Shown here piece by piece: positions 5,800 through 31,126 of a stretch of 64,000 nt of DNA. Numbering within the stretch: the first letter of the stretch is position 1; the number at the start of each line of letters is the position of its first letter. This stretch comes from an uncultured Acidimicrobiales bacterium. Its GTDB lineage: Bacteria; Actinomycetota; Acidimicrobiia; Acidimicrobiales; DATKAS01. The stretch lies in contig CAVPSD010000006.1 of the NCBI GenBank assembly GCA_963708175.1, forward strand, positions 640,538 to 704,537, given 5' to 3'. Made by a program: the position numbers and the translations under genes. The notes beneath the pieces were generated by a model. That model was not told the origin of the DNA. It searched no databases and saw only the letters and a list, made by a program, of their open reading frames with translations.

Positions 5800-6739
5800 A
5801 CCGGTCGAGCTCGTCGGGGATGTGGGGCCCCGCTGGCTGATAGGCGATCTCCGTCGCACCGGCGGCCTCGAGCGACGCGACGTGGTCGCGCCACTGGTCC
5901 GCCGAACGGGCGACGCCGAACATCGTCAACGTCTCCCCCGTGACGACGAGCCGGTCGCGCTCGTTCGCCTCGATCAGGTGGCCTTCGTGAAGCGCGAGGT
6001 GGCGTTCGTCCTCGGGGACGGCTTCGAGCGCGGCCACCCACTCGTCGCCCTTCGGCAGGGTGGCGGCGGCACCTCGGAGATGGAGAGCGTGGTAGATCAG
6101 CGCGGCTGCGTGGCCCGCGGCTTCCATGCACCGCTCGCTCCCTGGGTCCTCGTCGGGGTCGAGCACGGTCCCGAACGCAAGGATCGAGCATCTCTCGAAC
6201 CCATTGGTCGGCTGCGTCGCAAAGATCCCGTCGGCGAGATCACGGGCAACGGCTTCGCCCTTCGGGCCGCCGGTGCCGAGGATGATCGGGACCCGGATGG
6301 GCCGCGCCGCGCCAAACCCCGACGGGTGCAGCATTCGGATGCGCGCGCCCTCCCATGACGTCGTCTCGCCGGCAAGGAGCGCGATGACCACCTCCACGTA
6401 CTCACGCACATAGGACCACGGCAACGGCTTCTGCCCGAGCGTGAGGCGCCCGGTGAACCCGGATCCGAGTGCGAGGTTCACTCGGCCCGGTGCGATCTCG
6501 CAGAGGGTCCCGACAGCCGACGCCGTGACCATCGGATGACGCAGCGACGGGATGGCGACGCCCGGCCCGAGCTCGATCGTCGAAGTCCGCCGTGCGCACT
6601 CGGCGAGCGTCATCCACACGTCGGGATACAGCGCCGGCGAGTCGTAGAGCCACGCTCGGCGATAGCCGAGCTGTTCGGCCGCAGCCACGTGGTCGGGTGT
6701 AGCCATCGACGTTGCGAACGCGCACGAGATGTCGAGCAT
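5777..6739 (-). CDS. LLM-class (luciferase-like) flavin/F420-dependent oxidoreductase
   Basis: ORF 5777..6826 trimmed to ATG 6739 (MLDISCAF). There is a 1-nt TGATG overlap with the stop of the upstream gene. AEQLGYRRAWLYDSP and NLALGSGFTGR are typical of the LLM family. The cofactor is a family-level guess. Confidence 0.7.
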   Translation of the reverse strand: MLDISCAFATSMATPDHVAAAEQLGYRRAWLYDSPALYPDVWMTLAECARRTSTIELGPGVAIPSLRHPMVTASAVGTLCEIAPGRVNLALGSGFTGRLTLGQKPLPWSYVREYVEVVIALLAGETTSWEGARIRMLHPSGFGAARPIRVPIILGTGGPKGEAVARDLADGIFATQPTNGFERCSILAFGTVLDPDEDPGSERCMEAAGHAAALIYHALHLRGAAATLPKGDEWVAALEAVPEDERHLALHEGHLIEANERDRLVVTGETLTMFGVARSADQWRDHVASLEAAGATEIAYQPAGPHIPDELDRFMTAVSG

Positions 6740-7128
6740 CAGCGTGGCGATTCGAGCGCCGCGAGCATTGCGGGCGTGTCGATCGAGAAGTGCGCGGCGA
6801 CGGCCTTGCCCTCGCGGATCGTCCACCGGTGGACCTCGGGGATGTCGAACGGCGTGCCGTGGGCGACCGTCGTCCCCTTCGTGTGACCGACCTGGATCAC
6901 GTCGCCATCCGCCGTGAACATCTCATGGGTCGTGACCGCTGACTGGATCGCCCCGGTCAGCGCTCCGGCGAACGCGAGGAAGCCGGGATGCCCGACGTGG
7001 CGGCCGCCCCACGGCAGCCGATCGTCCTGGGTGATGACGCAGGACTCGTCGATGAGCTTGGCGAGCGTGTCCACGTCGCGGCCTGCCATGGCGGCGTAGA
7101 TCTGCTGCACGACTTCGATGTCCGACAT
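6739..7128 (-). CDS. SnoaL-like / NTF2-fold protein
   Basis: ORF 6739..7218 trimmed to ATG 7128 (MSDIEVVQQIYAAMAGRD). The N-terminal helix and C-terminal WTIREGKAVAAHFSID fit the SnoaL-like fold. Confidence 0.6.
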   Translation of the reverse strand: MSDIEVVQQIYAAMAGRDVDTLAKLIDESCVITQDDRLPWGGRHVGHPGFLAFAGALTGAIQSAVTTHEMFTADGDVIQVGHTKGTTVAHGTPFDIPEVHRWTIREGKAVAAHFSIDTPAMLAALESPR

Positions 7129-7153
7129 CGGAGCATCCTGACACCCGGGTGTG

Positions 7154-7167
7154 CGAACATATGTTCG
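7154..7167. promoter_or_regulatory. LexA/SOS box (GAAC-N4-GTTC palindrome) overlapping the dinB start codon
   Basis: CGAACATATGTTCG is a perfect 14-nt palindrome. Its core GAAC-N4-GTTC matches the Gram-positive/actinobacterial LexA operator. The central ATG (7161) is the dinB start. Confidence 0.6.
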
Positions 7168-8357
7168 TGCGGGCCGATGCCACGATCCTCCACGCCGATC
7201 TGGACTCGTTTTACGCATCAGTCGAGCAGCGCGACGACCCGTCGCTGAGGGGCAAGCCCGTCATCGTCGGCGGTGGCGTCGTGCTGGCCGCGAGCTACGA
7301 GGCCAAGGCCTTCGGGATCCACACGCCGATGGGCGGCCGGGAAGCGCGCCAGATGTGCCCGAACCTCATCGAGGTCTCACCCCGGTTCTCTGCGTACTCC
7401 GACGCGAGCAAAGCCGTGTTCGAGATCTTCAACGACACGACTCCCCTCGTCGAGGGGATCTCGATCGACGAAGCGTTTCTGGACGTGGGTGGGCTGCGCC
7501 GGGTGTCCGGCACGCCGACCCAGATCGCGATCCGGCTCCGCGACCGTGTGCAGGACGAGGTCGGCCTGCCGATCACCGTCGGTGTCGCCCGCACGAAGTT
7601 CTTGGCGAAGGTCGCGAGCCGCGTCGCCAAGCCCGATGGCTTGCTCGTCGTGCGGCCCGAGCGCGAGCTCGCGTTCCTGCATCCGCTGCCCGTCGAACGG
7701 CTGTGGGGCGTGGGCATCAAGACCGCCACCAAGCTGCACGACCGCGGCATCGACACGGTCGCCGACGTGGCACGCCTCGAGCAGTCAACGCTGATGTCGA
7801 TCCTCGGCCCTCACGCTGGTCGGCATCTCCACGCCCTCGCCCACAACTACGACCCCCGACCCGTCGAGGTCGGTCGGCGCCGGCGCTCGATCGGCTCGCA
7901 GCGAGCGATCGGGTGGCGCGCCAAGGCGCCCGGAGAGATCGAGGCGACCCTGGCGGGTCTGGTCGACAGGGTCACGCGCCGACTGCGCGTGGCCAATCGG
8001 GTCGGCCGCACAGTCGTGCTGCGCATGCGCTTCGAGGACTGGTCGCGCGCGACGCGCTCGCACACGATGGCGCGGCCGACCGCGCTCACCGAACCCATCC
8101 TCGAGACCGCGCGTGGCCTGCTCGCCGACGTGCAGCCCCTGATCGACGATCAGGGGCTCACGCTCATCGGCATCGCCGTGATGAACCTCGACGACGACGA
8201 TGCCGTGCAGCTGCCGCTCCCATTCGACCGCCGCACCGCGAGCCGCCTCGACGCCGCGCTCGACGAGGTGCGCGACAAGTTCGGGTCCGCCGCGGTGAGC
8301 CGAGCCGGACAGCTCGGCCACGACCCCGGGTTCGCGCCGCCCCTGCTGCCCGACTGA
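7161..8357 (+). CDS. dinB: DNA polymerase IV (Y-family translesion polymerase)
   Basis: MFVRADATILHADLDSFYASVEQRDDP, SIDEAFLDV and GVARTKFLAKVAS are Y-family hallmarks. An alternative GTG start lies at 7149. Confidence 0.85.
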   Translation: MFVRADATILHADLDSFYASVEQRDDPSLRGKPVIVGGGVVLAASYEAKAFGIHTPMGGREARQMCPNLIEVSPRFSAYSDASKAVFEIFNDTTPLVEGISIDEAFLDVGGLRRVSGTPTQIAIRLRDRVQDEVGLPITVGVARTKFLAKVASRVAKPDGLLVVRPERELAFLHPLPVERLWGVGIKTATKLHDRGIDTVADVARLEQSTLMSILGPHAGRHLHALAHNYDPRPVEVGRRRRSIGSQRAIGWRAKAPGEIEATLAGLVDRVTRRLRVANRVGRTVVLRMRFEDWSRATRSHTMARPTALTEPILETARGLLADVQPLIDDQGLTLIGIAVMNLDDDDAVQLPLPFDRRTASRLDAALDEVRDKFGSAAVSRAGQLGHDPGFAPPLLPD

Positions 8358-27864: not shown

Positions 27865-28974
27865 GTGGCCGCCAAGCAAGAGCCGCCGATGCCGACGCGG
27901 GTGGTCGCGATCAACGCCGCCATCGACGACACGCGCACCACCGGCACTGTCGCGACGCCGAGTCGCCGCAAGCTGATCATCCGCATCGCGATGCTGTCGG
28001 TCACCGCCTTCTCGCTCTACTTGCTCTTCCCCGCCCTAGTCTCGGTGCTCGGTTCATGGAAGGACCTCGAGCGGGTCAACCCGGGTTGGTTCGTCGCGGT
28101 GCTGTGCACCGAGAGCTTGAGCCTGATCTGCTTCTGGAACCTCCAACGAATCGCGTTGCGCACGAAGGCGTGGTTCTCCGTCGCAACCTCACAGCTCGCG
28201 AGCGGGGCGATGACCAGCATCATCCCTGCCGGACAAGCGGCCGGCGCGGCGCTCCAGTTCAAGATGCTCACCACCGCCGGAATCGACGCCGCCACCGCCG
28301 GTTCGTCGATCACTGCGCTGTCGTTGCTCACGACCGGCACTGTCCTCGCGCTCCCCATCCTCGCCCTGCCCGCAATCCTCACCGGCACCACGGTGCCCTC
28401 CGGCCTCGCACAGGCCGCGTGGATCGGCGCGATCGCGTTCGTGCTGCTCGCGCTCGGGGCCGCATGCCTCCTGATCTTCGTCAAGCCCCTCGAGGTCGTC
28501 GGCTCGGTGATCCAACGCGTTCGAAACCGGTTCGAACGCAAGAAGGCACCCCTCACGGACCTCCCCCTTCGGCTCGTGCGTGAGCGCGACCTCATCCGCC
28601 AAACGTTGGGCTCGCATCTCGGCGCCGCCGTGCTGAGCGCGGTGGGACGGTCGCTGTTCGACTACCTCACGTTGCTCGTCGCGCTGCGGGCTGTGGGAGC
28701 GAGCCCGGACCCGACCCTCGTGCTCCTCGCCTACGCCGCGGCTCAGATCCTCAGCATGATCCCGATCACGCCGGGAGGTCTCGGCTTCGTCGAGGCCGGC
28801 CTGACCGCGACCCTCGCGCTCGCGGGCGTCAGCGGCGGTGAAGCGGTGCTCGCCACGCTCATCTACCGGTTGGCGTCGTACTGGTTGCCGATGCCGAGTG
28901 GTCTCGTCGCCTATCTGCTGTTCCGTCGCCGCTATCAGACGGGGAAGGTCGGCCGGCCAGTGCCGGCGACCTGA
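27865..28974 (+). CDS. flippase-like / lysylphosphatidylglycerol-synthase TM-region family (UPF0104) membrane protein
   Basis: 369 aa, polytopic. The C-terminal ITPGGLGFVEAGLTATL motif is characteristic of the LPG_synthase_TM family. Confidence 0.65.
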   Translation: MAAKQEPPMPTRVVAINAAIDDTRTTGTVATPSRRKLIIRIAMLSVTAFSLYLLFPALVSVLGSWKDLERVNPGWFVAVLCTESLSLICFWNLQRIALRTKAWFSVATSQLASGAMTSIIPAGQAAGAALQFKMLTTAGIDAATAGSSITALSLLTTGTVLALPILALPAILTGTTVPSGLAQAAWIGAIAFVLLALGAACLLIFVKPLEVVGSVIQRVRNRFERKKAPLTDLPLRLVRERDLIRQTLGSHLGAAVLSAVGRSLFDYLTLLVALRAVGASPDPTLVLLAYAAAQILSMIPITPGGLGFVEAGLTATLALAGVSGGEAVLATLIYRLASYWLPMPSGLVAYLLFRRRYQTGKVGRPVPAT

Positions 28975-28975
28975 C

Positions 28976-29548
28976 GTGCTCGAAGCGTTCCTCATCAGCT
29001 TTGGAGTGATCTTCGTCGCCGAGCTCGGCGACAAGAGCCAGCTGATGGCGCTCGGCTTCGCCACGCGCTATCCCGCGGTCTCGGTCTTGATCGGGATCAC
29101 GTTGGCGACGGCGATCGTCCACCTCCTGTCGGTCGGCATCGGAGCGGTGATCGGGTCTGCGCTGCCCGATCGCGCGATCCAGGCGGTGTCGGGTCTCGCG
29201 TTCCTCGGCTTCGCGCTCTGGACCCTGCGGGGCGACGACCTCACCGCGGGTGACAAGGAGAGAATCGCGCAATCCCAGGGTTCAGTGATCCTCACCGTCG
29301 GTGGGCTGTTCATGCTGTCCGAGCTCGGCGACAAGACGATGCTCGCCACCGTCACACTCGCGACCGAGCACGGCCTGTTCGGCACGTGGCTCGGCTCGAC
29401 CGTAGGCATGGTGGCCGCCGACGCGATCGCGATCGTCGTCGGTCGGATTGCCGGCGATCGCCTCCCTGAGCGCGCCATCCGCATCGGCGCGGCCGTGCTG
29501 TTCGCGCTCATCGGGATCGCGTCTCTCGTCGAGGCCGCGATCGGATGA
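28976..29548 (+). CDS. GDT1/TMEM165 (UPF0016) family cation transporter
   Basis: Two E-x-G-D-K-[ST] motifs (AELGDKSQ, SELGDKTM). ORF 28838..29548 trimmed to GTG 28976 (VLEAFLISFGVIF), 2 nt after the upstream stop. Confidence 0.75.
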   Translation: MLEAFLISFGVIFVAELGDKSQLMALGFATRYPAVSVLIGITLATAIVHLLSVGIGAVIGSALPDRAIQAVSGLAFLGFALWTLRGDDLTAGDKERIAQSQGSVILTVGGLFMLSELGDKTMLATVTLATEHGLFGTWLGSTVGMVAADAIAIVVGRIAGDRLPERAIRIGAAVLFALIGIASLVEAAIG

Positions 29549-29590: not shown

Positions 29591-31126
29591 GTGCGACGGA
29601 CGGCGGTGCTCATCGGGCTCCTCGCCACCGCCACGATCGCCATCTCGTGCGGCTCGAACGCGACGCCCGCGGCCGCTCCCTCGACGAGCGACCCGACGAC
29701 TTCGGCGGCGGTCGCGACGTCGACGCCCGCGGATCCGTCGTTCCCCGCGGGCACACAGCACCTGCACTTCGAGTTCGGTCCGGTCGACGTGCAACCGGGA
29801 CAGAACTCGATCGAGTTCTCGAAGGGGCAGATCCCGAAGCCCGACGTCGACGGATGGATCTTGCGCATGGCAGCGAACCTCAGGCGCGAGGACGGCAGCG
29901 TCCCGCCCGTCGACGTCATCCACCTCCATCACGGCGTCTGGTTGAACGCGTCGCGGAAGGACAGCACCTTCCCGACGTTCCCCGAGCGGTTCTTCGCTGC
30001 CGGCGAGGAAAAGACGACCACGGAGTTCGCGCCTGGCTACGGCTACGCGTATCGCGCGACCGACCGCTGGGCGCTGAACTACATGCTCCACAACCTCACG
30101 CCGACCGGCGAGAAGATCTGGATCACCTACGACCTCGACTTCCTGCCGTCGTCCCAGGACGCCGCGGCCGCCATCATCGGAGCTCGACCGGTGTGGCTCG
30201 ACGTCGAGAACGGCAGCAGCTATCCGGTGTTCGACGTCATCCGCGGAACGGGCACGAACGGCACGTTCACCTATCCCGACGACGCGACCGACCCCTACGA
30301 CGGAGCGCCGCCGAAGAACGAGTGGACGGTCGACATCGAAGGCGTGCTCGTCGGCACCGGTGGCCACCTGCATCCCGGTGGGCTGCACGACGACCTCTGG
30401 CTCGACCGCGCCGGCCAGACCGCGCACCTCTTCAAGTCCGACGCGAGGTACTTCGAGCCCGCGGGGGCGGTGTCTTGGGACGTCGCGATGACGGTGACCA
30501 ACCCGACGTGGAATGTCACGGTGCACCCGGACGACGTGCTCCGCGTGTCGGCGACGTACGACTCGGCGCGGGCGTCGTGGTACGAGTCCATGGGGATCAT
30601 GGTCGTGTGGATGGCGAACGGGGCGAGCGGAGGCGCCGACCCGTTCGTGACGCCGGTCGACGAACCCGGTCACCTCACGCACGGCCACCTGCCCGAGAAC
30701 GACCACCACGGCGGCCAGAACGCGACACTTCCCGACGTGACCGCGCTGCCGACGAACCCCGCGACGGGGCCGATCCACATTTCCTCGTTCTTCTACGCCT
30801 CCGGTGACATGCGCACGGGCGGTGACTTGCCGAGCGTCAAGCATGGAGAGCCGCTCACGTTCATCAACGACGACTCGCCGGTCGGTCCGGGCATCTGGCA
30901 CTCGATCACCGCGTGCAAGGCGCCATGCAACCTCGAGACGGGGATCGCGTATCCGATCGCGGACGCGGACATCCCCTTCGACTCCGGCCAGCTCGGCACC
31001 CAAGGCGTTCCGACCACCGGCAGCATCGAGTGGTCGACGCCCACCGACCTCCCCGCGGGCACGTACACCTACTTCTGCCGGATCCACCCGCTCATGCGCG
31101 GCGGCTTCGTCGTGACGGAGGGCTAA
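29591..31126 (+). CDS. secreted copper lipoprotein: PHM/DBH-like two-copper monooxygenase-like region fused to amicyanin-like cupredoxin domain
   Basis: Lipobox IAISCGS. The His/Met pattern H113-H114 ... H167 ... H259-x-H261 ... M334/M337 parallels the CuH/CuM ligand order of peptidylglycine alpha-hydroxylating monooxygenase. C-terminal type-1 Cu ligands are H437 and C496-x2-H499-x2-M502 (YFCRIHPLM). The function is inferred only. Confidence 0.55.
   Translation: MRRTAVLIGLLATATIAISCGSNATPAAAPSTSDPTTSAAVATSTPADPSFPAGTQHLHFEFGPVDVQPGQNSIEFSKGQIPKPDVDGWILRMAANLRREDGSVPPVDVIHLHHGVWLNASRKDSTFPTFPERFFAAGEEKTTTEFAPGYGYAYRATDRWALNYMLHNLTPTGEKIWITYDLDFLPSSQDAAAAIIGARPVWLDVENGSSYPVFDVIRGTGTNGTFTYPDDATDPYDGAPPKNEWTVDIEGVLVGTGGHLHPGGLHDDLWLDRAGQTAHLFKSDARYFEPAGAVSWDVAMTVTNPTWNVTVHPDDVLRVSATYDSARASWYESMGIMVVWMANGASGGADPFVTPVDEPGHLTHGHLPENDHHGGQNATLPDVTALPTNPATGPIHISSFFYASGDMRTGGDLPSVKHGEPLTFINDDSPVGPGIWHSITACKAPCNLETGIAYPIADADIPFDSGQLGTQGVPTTGSIEWSTPTDLPAGTYTYFCRIHPLMRGGFVVTEG

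Follow-up and report, generated by a model that had tools for sequence, protein, structure and literature searches.

The gene considered here lies on the forward strand of a contig (CAVPSD010000006.1, assembly GCA_963708175.1) from an uncultured Acidimicrobiales bacterium, within a stretch of 64,000 nucleotides (contig positions 640,538 to 704,537) that was analysed as a whole and is called the window below. It encodes a lipoprotein of 511 amino acids in which a core predicted to adopt the fold of peptidylglycine alpha-hydroxylating monooxygenase (PHM) and dopamine beta-hydroxylase (DBH) is fused to a C-terminal cupredoxin that resembles amicyanin. The coordinates of the individual parts are collected in Table 1. 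Translation from a further GTG in the same frame, at 29606, gives the 506-aa form entered in the database (P0001).

The original prediction, read from the letters of the gene, had described a secreted lipoprotein with a Thr/Ser/Pro linker, a PHM-like core and a blue-copper domain, and every His, Met and Cys residue that it named was located at its position in the translated open reading frame (ORF). The lipobox, A-I-S-C20, fits the PROSITE-type pattern and is found in 34 of 49 homologs, and the stretch that follows is of low complexity, composed largely of Thr, Ser, Pro and Ala, and disordered in the structural model (residues 1-38). Judged by these signals, the product is an extracytoplasmic, lipid-anchored protein. 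Export by the twin-arginine translocation (Tat) route was considered as a trait of the family and rejected: an RR motif, although present in this protein, occurs in only 7 of the 49 homologs. Cysteine is restricted to positions 20, 442, 446 and 496, the core containing none, while histidines occupy, among others, positions 111, 113, 114, 167, 259, 261, 364, 437 and 499. The methionines of interest are M165, M334, M337 and M502.

Table 1. Parts of the gene, candidate metal ligands and examples of nearby phosphate genes (coordinates are those of the window unless a homolog locus is named)
Feature	Coordinates	Strand	Basis
Whole gene, GTG start, stop codon 31124-31126, 511-aa lipoprotein	29591..31126	+	>4,700 homologs
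Signal peptide with lipobox A-I-S-C20	29591..29650	+	sequence; lipobox in 34/49 homologs
Thr/Ser/Pro/Ala-rich flexible tether, residues 21-50	29651..29740	+	pLDDT <50 for residues 1-38; not conserved
PHM-like domain 1, residues ~51-195, with putative CuH-like site	29741..30175	+	Foldseek; strand-by-strand match to PHM domain 1
H111-L-H113-H114 motif; H113/H114 equivalent to PHM H107/H108, H111 an extra conserved His	29921..29932	+	alignment and conservation
H111 codon	29921-29923
M165-L-H167; H167 equivalent to PHM H172, M165 at the position of PHM Q170	30083..30091	+	alignments and conservation
M165 codon	30083-30085
PHM-like domain 2, residues ~196-345, with putative CuM-like site	30176..30625	+	Foldseek; profile and secondary-structure alignments
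H259-L-H261, equivalent to PHM H242-x-H244	30365..30373	+	hhalign, secondary structure plus sequence, secondary structure only; 99.6% conserved
M334, matching PHM M314 to within one residue	30590..30592	+	secondary-structure alignments; 98% conserved
Inter-domain linker, residues 346-385, motif L-T-H-G-H-L-P-E-N with H364 (codon 30680-30682)	30626..30745	+	conservation
Amicyanin-like type-1 copper cupredoxin domain, residues ~386-511	30746..31123	+	NCBIfam, PDB profile search, Foldseek, conservation
H437, putative type-1 copper ligand	30899-30901
C442-x3-C446 pair	30914-30928
C496, putative type-1 copper ligand	31076-31078
H499, putative type-1 copper ligand	31085-31087
M502, putative type-1 copper ligand	31094-31096
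Phosphate genes, examples	window:31137-32795; L085:5359-6921; L087:10351-13548; L001:5063-6523

An AlphaFold2 model of the protein built on a 49-sequence family alignment reached a mean predicted local distance difference test (pLDDT) score of 86.9 and a predicted template modelling (pTM) score of 0.84. When it was compared with the PDB by Foldseek, ranks 1-29 were all crystal forms of rat PHM or human DBH (4zel), with E-values of 1e-8 to 2e-6, a probability of 1.00 and about 340 aligned columns that extend across both sub-domains; the TM-score normalised to PHM lay at 0.46-0.58 for most entries and sequence identity at about 10%. The same search was run as a control with a model of rat PHM itself (pLDDT 93.5), which retrieved the PHM crystals at about 1e-58 and DBH, a true homolog of 25% identity, at 1e-18 to 1e-20, the best unrelated beta-sandwiches appearing only at E >=2.6e-5 with TM <=0.25. 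The PHM match of the lipoprotein, as modelled, is well clear of this background of fold analogues, yet far more distant than the relationship between PHM and DBH. The order of the main strands, assigned by DSSP in both models, is the same as in PHM throughout, and no solved protein besides PHM and DBH was found by Foldseek in the PDB to have this two-domain arrangement. The models thereby support, with high predicted confidence, a two-domain PHM/DBH fold for residues ~50-345, which upholds the likeness originally seen in the order of a few His and Met residues.

Whether these residues also coincide with the copper ligands of PHM was approached by three indirect alignments: profile against profile, DSSP states combined with BLOSUM62, and DSSP states alone. 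The PHM sequence was checked against PDB chain 1SDW_A, which reproduced the ligand numbering. For the profile-profile comparison, a profile of 85 N-domain sequences was aligned by hhalign with one of 35 metazoan PHM sequences. The resulting alignment, collinear over 228 columns though statistically weak, places H259-x-H261 on PHM H242-x-H244, "GDvL" on PHM "GDIL", and H167 on H172; crossed pairings of the sub-domains scored worse (E 0.017 and 0.43). The DSSP+BLOSUM62 alignment, which was used without ligand information, sets PHM H108, H172, H242 and H244 exactly on H114, H167, H259 and H261, with PHM H107 (Ala in the mutant chain used) contiguous with H113, and M314 one residue from M334. With DSSP states alone, PHM H172, H242, H244 and M314 come to lie within 0-1 residue of H167, H259, H261 and M334, a distance that grows to 2 under the severest gap setting. 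The six ligands of the predicted PHM order are in this way found on equivalent strands and turns, and the alignments support a positional equivalence of these residues with the CuH and CuM sets of PHM. A database entry labelled rat PAM (P0121, 312 aa) is in fact the H107A mutant PDB chain and not the wild type, which affects automatic alignment of the HH motif.

Conservation was assessed in 283 family sequences that share 36-82% identity with the query. H114 and H167 are invariant (100%), H113, H259 and H261 are each conserved at 99.6% and M334 at 98%, while the four residues of the proposed type-1 site (H437, C496, H499 and M502) are kept in 98-99% of the sequences, an agreement that goes beyond chance. 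All the His and Cys residues put forward as ligands thus stood, together with M334 and M502, at 98-100%; M337, which had been offered as an alternative to M334, did not, being variable (221/282) and no longer a credible candidate. Several positions that had gone unremarked in the original prediction, namely H111, M165, H364 and C442/C446, are as conserved as the listed ligands. H111 is His in 275 sequences and Met in 5, an exchange consistent with the behaviour of Cu(I) ligands, and H364 is conserved at 98%. Besides the ligands, about 45 further positions are conserved at >=97%, which suggests a specific substrate pocket. Neither H111, M165 and H364 nor the C442-x3-C446 pair has an equivalent among the ligands of PHM or amicyanin, and a further metal site, a relay for electrons or a disulfide bond are conceivable roles for them.

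The C-terminal domain of about 125 residues had been taken for an amicyanin-like cupredoxin with a short C-x2-H-x2-M loop, and the structural comparison bears this out. By sequence the likeness is modest: the NCBIfam scan returned a single weak amicyanin match over residues 489-508 (E=0.005, 17.3 bits against a cutoff of 110.2, TIGR02657), and the profile search of the PDB reached amicyanin at E~1e-3. Foldseek matches the domain with the amicyanins 1sfd, 2qdv, 2gb2 and 1aaj at E 7e-5 to 2e-4, probability 1.0, TM 0.54-0.66 and 20-24% identity. C496, H499 and M502 align with amicyanin C92, H95 and M98, while H437 was assigned as a ligand by co-conservation and not by alignment to a hidden Markov model (HMM). 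The few members with a degenerate C-domain have usually lost the type-1 ligands jointly. Model and alignments taken together support an amicyanin-like cupredoxin. It does not qualify as amicyanin proper, as its score lies below the TIGR02657 cutoff and methylamine dehydrogenase (mau) genes are not among the neighbours.

The protein belongs to a large family. Its full-length sequence is matched by more than 4,700 clusters at 90% identity, a profile of the N-domain matches 1,667 representatives at 50% identity (E<=1e-3), and at least 582 species-representative genomes contain two peptide motifs that are conserved in the family. The carriers are almost all metagenome-assembled genomes of Acidimicrobiia/Actinomycetota, to which the complete genome of strain IMCC26256 (CP011489.1) is to be added; those in the Acidimicrobiia come almost only from uncultured organisms of soil, freshwater and marine samples. 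In the source annotations, members are named "plastocyanin" or "hypothetical protein" and nothing else. On the evidence of these sequences the family is large, strongly constrained and uncovered by Pfam. The cupredoxin is kept in 34 of 42 divergent members. Among three further variants (P0290, P0418, P0440), one member of 1,211 aa has an added PQQ-type beta-propeller and a Pfam Copper-bind domain and two carry RTX (HemolysinCabind) repeats.

Several genomes hold more than one copy. A contig of 9.9 kb carries five tandem paralogs on the same strand (523, 515, 514, 525 and >=494 aa; L084:2007-9900), other contigs of ~9.6-11.4 kb hold two or three, and in some reference genomes two copies lie dispersed (L018+L030, L020+L026). 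Such multiplicity suggests a diversified substrate specificity in some lineages. In two close relatives (L083 and L035, region ~6000-7400) two ORFs take the place of the single family gene, and a frameshift, a pseudogene or an error of long-read assembly are all possible causes.

Within Pfam, PF07712 (SURNod19/MtN19) alone gives any signal for the core. One relative that retains all ligands and the cupredoxin (P0278) scores 25.7 bits against the PF07712 cutoff of 25, and a second (P0421) is likewise annotated; in all, 2 of 120 relatives of P0278 bear the annotation. Three further relatives give collinear sub-threshold matches (E 0.012-0.11), in which domain 1 is covered by profile positions 27-67 and domain 2 by positions 275-369. 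For the query the Pfam scan gave no PF07712 match, and tblastn of P0278 against plasmids for annotated bacterial Nod19 genes gave none either; an 'MtN19' hit in a paper on Pseudomonas syringae proved to be the name of a vector. We take the relationship, as it appears in these profiles, to be real but remote, a borderline case and not membership. The function of the Nod19 proteins of plants and fungi is described as unknown (PMC9632046). In common bean, validation has shown Nod19 to be targeted by the copper-responsive miR398b, and the gene shares its regulation with Cu/Zn superoxide dismutase (Cu/Zn-SOD) (PMC3882225). The full-text literature searched, a scope that leaves most subscription journals outside, yielded no structural assignment of Nod19 and no characterised fusion of a PHM-like protein with a cupredoxin from bacteria.

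The genomic neighbourhood is little conserved. In the window the gene is flanked on one side by a GDT1-family cation transporter and on the other by a PiT phosphate transporter and a PhoU-like protein, an LPG-synthase-type membrane protein also being among the neighbours, and the order GDT1 - gene - PiT - PhoU_div is kept in five close relatives only. When the neighbours at 84 loci were clustered, no family exceeded 16/84 (SDR 16, YceI-like 12-13, CtaA 10-11), and a conserved operon was rejected; three homolog loci on long contigs had no neighbours in common. Phosphate genes (PhoD, PiT, PhoU-like, PPK2, sulfatase/AlkP-type) lie near 12/80 loci, or 7/75 once the five syntenic relatives are removed; this may exceed expectation, but an association with the phosphate regulon was rejected as unconvincing and is at most a weak lead. 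The gene behaves as a stand-alone unit, and its context therefore names neither a substrate nor an electron donor. The window ORFs of the LPG-synthase-type protein (27865-28974) and of the GDT1-family transporter (28838-29548) overlap by ~135 bp; the true start of the latter probably lies further downstream, since its GDT1 Pfam match begins at residue 53.

From the fold, the ligands and the attached cupredoxin we propose a lipid-anchored extracytoplasmic redox enzyme with three coppers, in which a PHM/DBH-type core is served by a type-1 copper acting as a built-in electron port, and we consider this reading rather probable. Domain 1 would hold a CuH-like electron-transfer site formed by H113, H114 and H167 and probably extended by H111 and/or M165, domain 2 a CuM-like site for O2 activation made up of H259, H261 and M334, and the cupredoxin a blue copper bound by H437, C496, H499 and M502. 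The type-1 copper would accept single electrons from a donor close to the membrane and hand them on to the CuH-like site, so taking the role that ascorbate plays in the animal enzymes, and the CuM-like site would bind O2 and hydroxylate or oxidise an extracellular substrate. A monooxygenase activity in which type-1 copper replaces ascorbate is plausible. What the analysis establishes is the fold, the conserved ligands at positions equivalent to those of PHM, the fusion of the domains and the signal for export; the occupancy by copper, the direction in which electrons run, the O2 chemistry and the substrate belong to inference.

A number of observations weigh against this proposal. The Pfam scan of the query gave no match at all at E<=10, and a search for the Cu2_monooxygen domains (PF01082 and PF03712), the check suggested with the original prediction, matched neither the query nor any of 42 divergent relatives. 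A PDB sequence search with the protein or with the 49-sequence family profile retrieved amicyanins only, over the C-terminal ~50 residues, and left the core unmatched. Likewise, hhalign found no alignment between the family and a single PHM sequence, and against the PHM profile its scores are insignificant (E 0.02 overall and 0.006-0.007 per sub-domain, probability <6%). With no Cu2_monooxygen match and hhalign E-values of 0.006-0.02, the similarity is therefore one of fold and ligands and not of sequence family. Cysteines that are invariant in the PHM alignment contrast with a core free of Cys, and because of this the conserved disulfides of PHM are absent. The register of the HH pair is uncertain by up to 4 residues in the DSSP-only alignment, because that strand is longer here than in PHM, although the pair stays on the same strand. 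H111, M165 and H364 have no counterpart among the PHM ligands, and the real metal sites may therefore differ from those of PHM, perhaps as an elaboration of them. Several members of ~390-430 aa (P0245, P0272, P0320 and P0337 among the variants) lack the cupredoxin while keeping the core ligands and H364, so that a built-in donor is not obligatory. Finally, no conserved neighbour at the loci examined indicates a substrate or an electron donor.

Electrons could also run in the opposite direction, the core oxidising a substrate and the type-1 copper passing the electrons on to the respiratory chain, as amicyanin does for methylamine dehydrogenase. The C-domain is indeed nearest to amicyanin, a physiological electron acceptor, the protein is tied to the surface of the membrane by its lipid anchor, and in 10-11 of ~80 loci the gene for heme A synthase (CtaA) is found upstream. 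However, a His2Met site of the CuM type is known only as O2-activating (PHM, DBH and tyramine beta-monooxygenase), the linkage to CtaA concerns less than 15% of the loci, and a cytochrome or quinol-linked partner is not conserved nearby. We regard such a reversed flow as unlikely.

A role in copper handling would see the protein as a cuprous oxidase or a periplasmic copper buffer, comparable to CopI or enzymes of the CueO type, in which the type-1 copper and the His/Met sites bind or oxidise Cu(I). The many conserved His and Met residues would suit such a role, as would the His-rich linker of this protein (H361, H364, H366, H372 and H373), the exchange of His for Met at position 111, and the co-regulation of the borderline relative SURNod19 with Cu/Zn-SOD by miR398 in plants (PMC3882225). 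Among the linker histidines, however, only H364 is conserved; no neighbours of the cop, cus or csoR type were seen at the loci examined; and the strongly conserved non-ligand positions point to a specific substrate pocket. A copper-handling protein is to our mind quite unlikely.

The fusion of a type-1 copper to a further copper site also recalls the copper nitrite reductase NirK and multicopper oxidases, in which the electrons would feed a type-2 site that reduces nitrite, NO or O2. Foldseek lists Thermus NirK (6hbe, E 2e-6) and a Nitrosopumilus multicopper oxidase with a C-terminal cupredoxin (9cck, E 2e-4), and the HxH motifs bear a superficial resemblance to those of multicopper oxidases. 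These matches, however, have TM-scores of 0.16-0.20 and run through the cupredoxin domain alone, the core not being a cupredoxin fold; C496 is flanked by F495 and R497 and by no His, so that the Cys-His bridge is absent; and no nir or nor genes lie nearby. Both readings were rejected on the fold and the missing bridge, and we give them very little chance.

Least probable of all, and in our view very improbable, is a protein without catalytic activity, with a binding or structural role, that shares the beta-sandwich of PHM and PNGase F and whose histidines are structural or bind another metal: sequence-level homology to PHM is not significant and jelly-roll beta-sandwiches recur in unrelated proteins (Foldseek lists vicilins and capsid proteins at E~1e-4), but the six ligands are invariant and every one falls on its PHM position, both domains match in order with TM >0.5 against <=0.25 for the analogues, and fusion to a redox-active type-1 copper domain argues for redox chemistry.

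To our knowledge, all characterised noncoupled binuclear copper monooxygenases (PHM, DBH and tyramine beta-monooxygenase) are eukaryotic and fed by ascorbate. How electrons cross the solvent gap of ~11 Å between the two coppers of PHM/DBH-type enzymes is still debated. If the three-copper enzyme proposed here is real, a bacterial relative with an attached type-1 copper would provide a soluble and probably easily expressed model in which the entry of electrons could be followed at the blue-copper band. It would also be evidence that the fold is much older than the neuroendocrine enzymes and occurs far more widely, and a new extracellular oxidative activity in the Acidimicrobiia would follow. 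A broader proposal, which we put forward tentatively and would not expect to hold in full, is that of a widespread and so far unrecognised class of ascorbate-independent, extracytoplasmic three-copper monooxygenases in the Acidimicrobiia and their relatives, an old bacterial offshoot of the PHM/DBH lineage, fed by a fused type-1 copper domain; the lineage would include the plant and fungal Nod19/MtN19 proteins as copper oxygenases. Were the link to SURNod19 true, it would suggest, for the first time, a mechanism for a stress/nodulin family of plants and fungi that is under the control of a copper-responsive microRNA.

In comparison with known systems, the closest are PHM and DBH (PF01082 + PF03712), with which the protein shares a beta-sandwich of two domains in the same order, His-His...His in the first and His-x-His...Met in the second on equivalent strands and turns, and an extracytoplasmic or lumenal location. 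It differs from them in an identity of only ~10%, in being negative for their Pfam families and insignificant by hhalign, in its additional conserved H111, M165 (at the position of PHM Q170) and H364, and in its fused type-1 copper domain and lipid anchor; moreover, PHM and DBH are eukaryotic, whereas the present family is bacterial (Acidimicrobiia) and comes without DOMON or PAL partner domains. The Nod19 proteins, of ~400 aa (PMC3882225), are unlike the present protein in size.

With amicyanin the C-terminal domain has in common the cupredoxin fold, the upstream His ligand and the short C-x2-H-P-[FL]-M-R-G loop, which is nearly identical in the two proteins (YHCTPHPFMRG in amicyanin, YFCRIHPLMRG here). 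Amicyanin, however, is a free carrier of methylotrophs, whereas here the cupredoxin is one domain of a larger enzyme and contains an insertion of ~35 residues that bears the conserved C442-x3-C446 pair. Three-domain NirK and multicopper oxidases with an extra cupredoxin (6hbe, 9cck) offer a parallel in that a fused type-1 copper wires electrons to a catalytic copper in a secreted enzyme, but their catalytic domains are themselves cupredoxins with type-2 or trinuclear sites and a Cys-His bridge. The catalytic scaffold is already recognisable from PHM and DBH; what is new is a family that no curated collection covers, its bacterial distribution, the extra conserved ligands, and the electron-transfer domain fused to the core.

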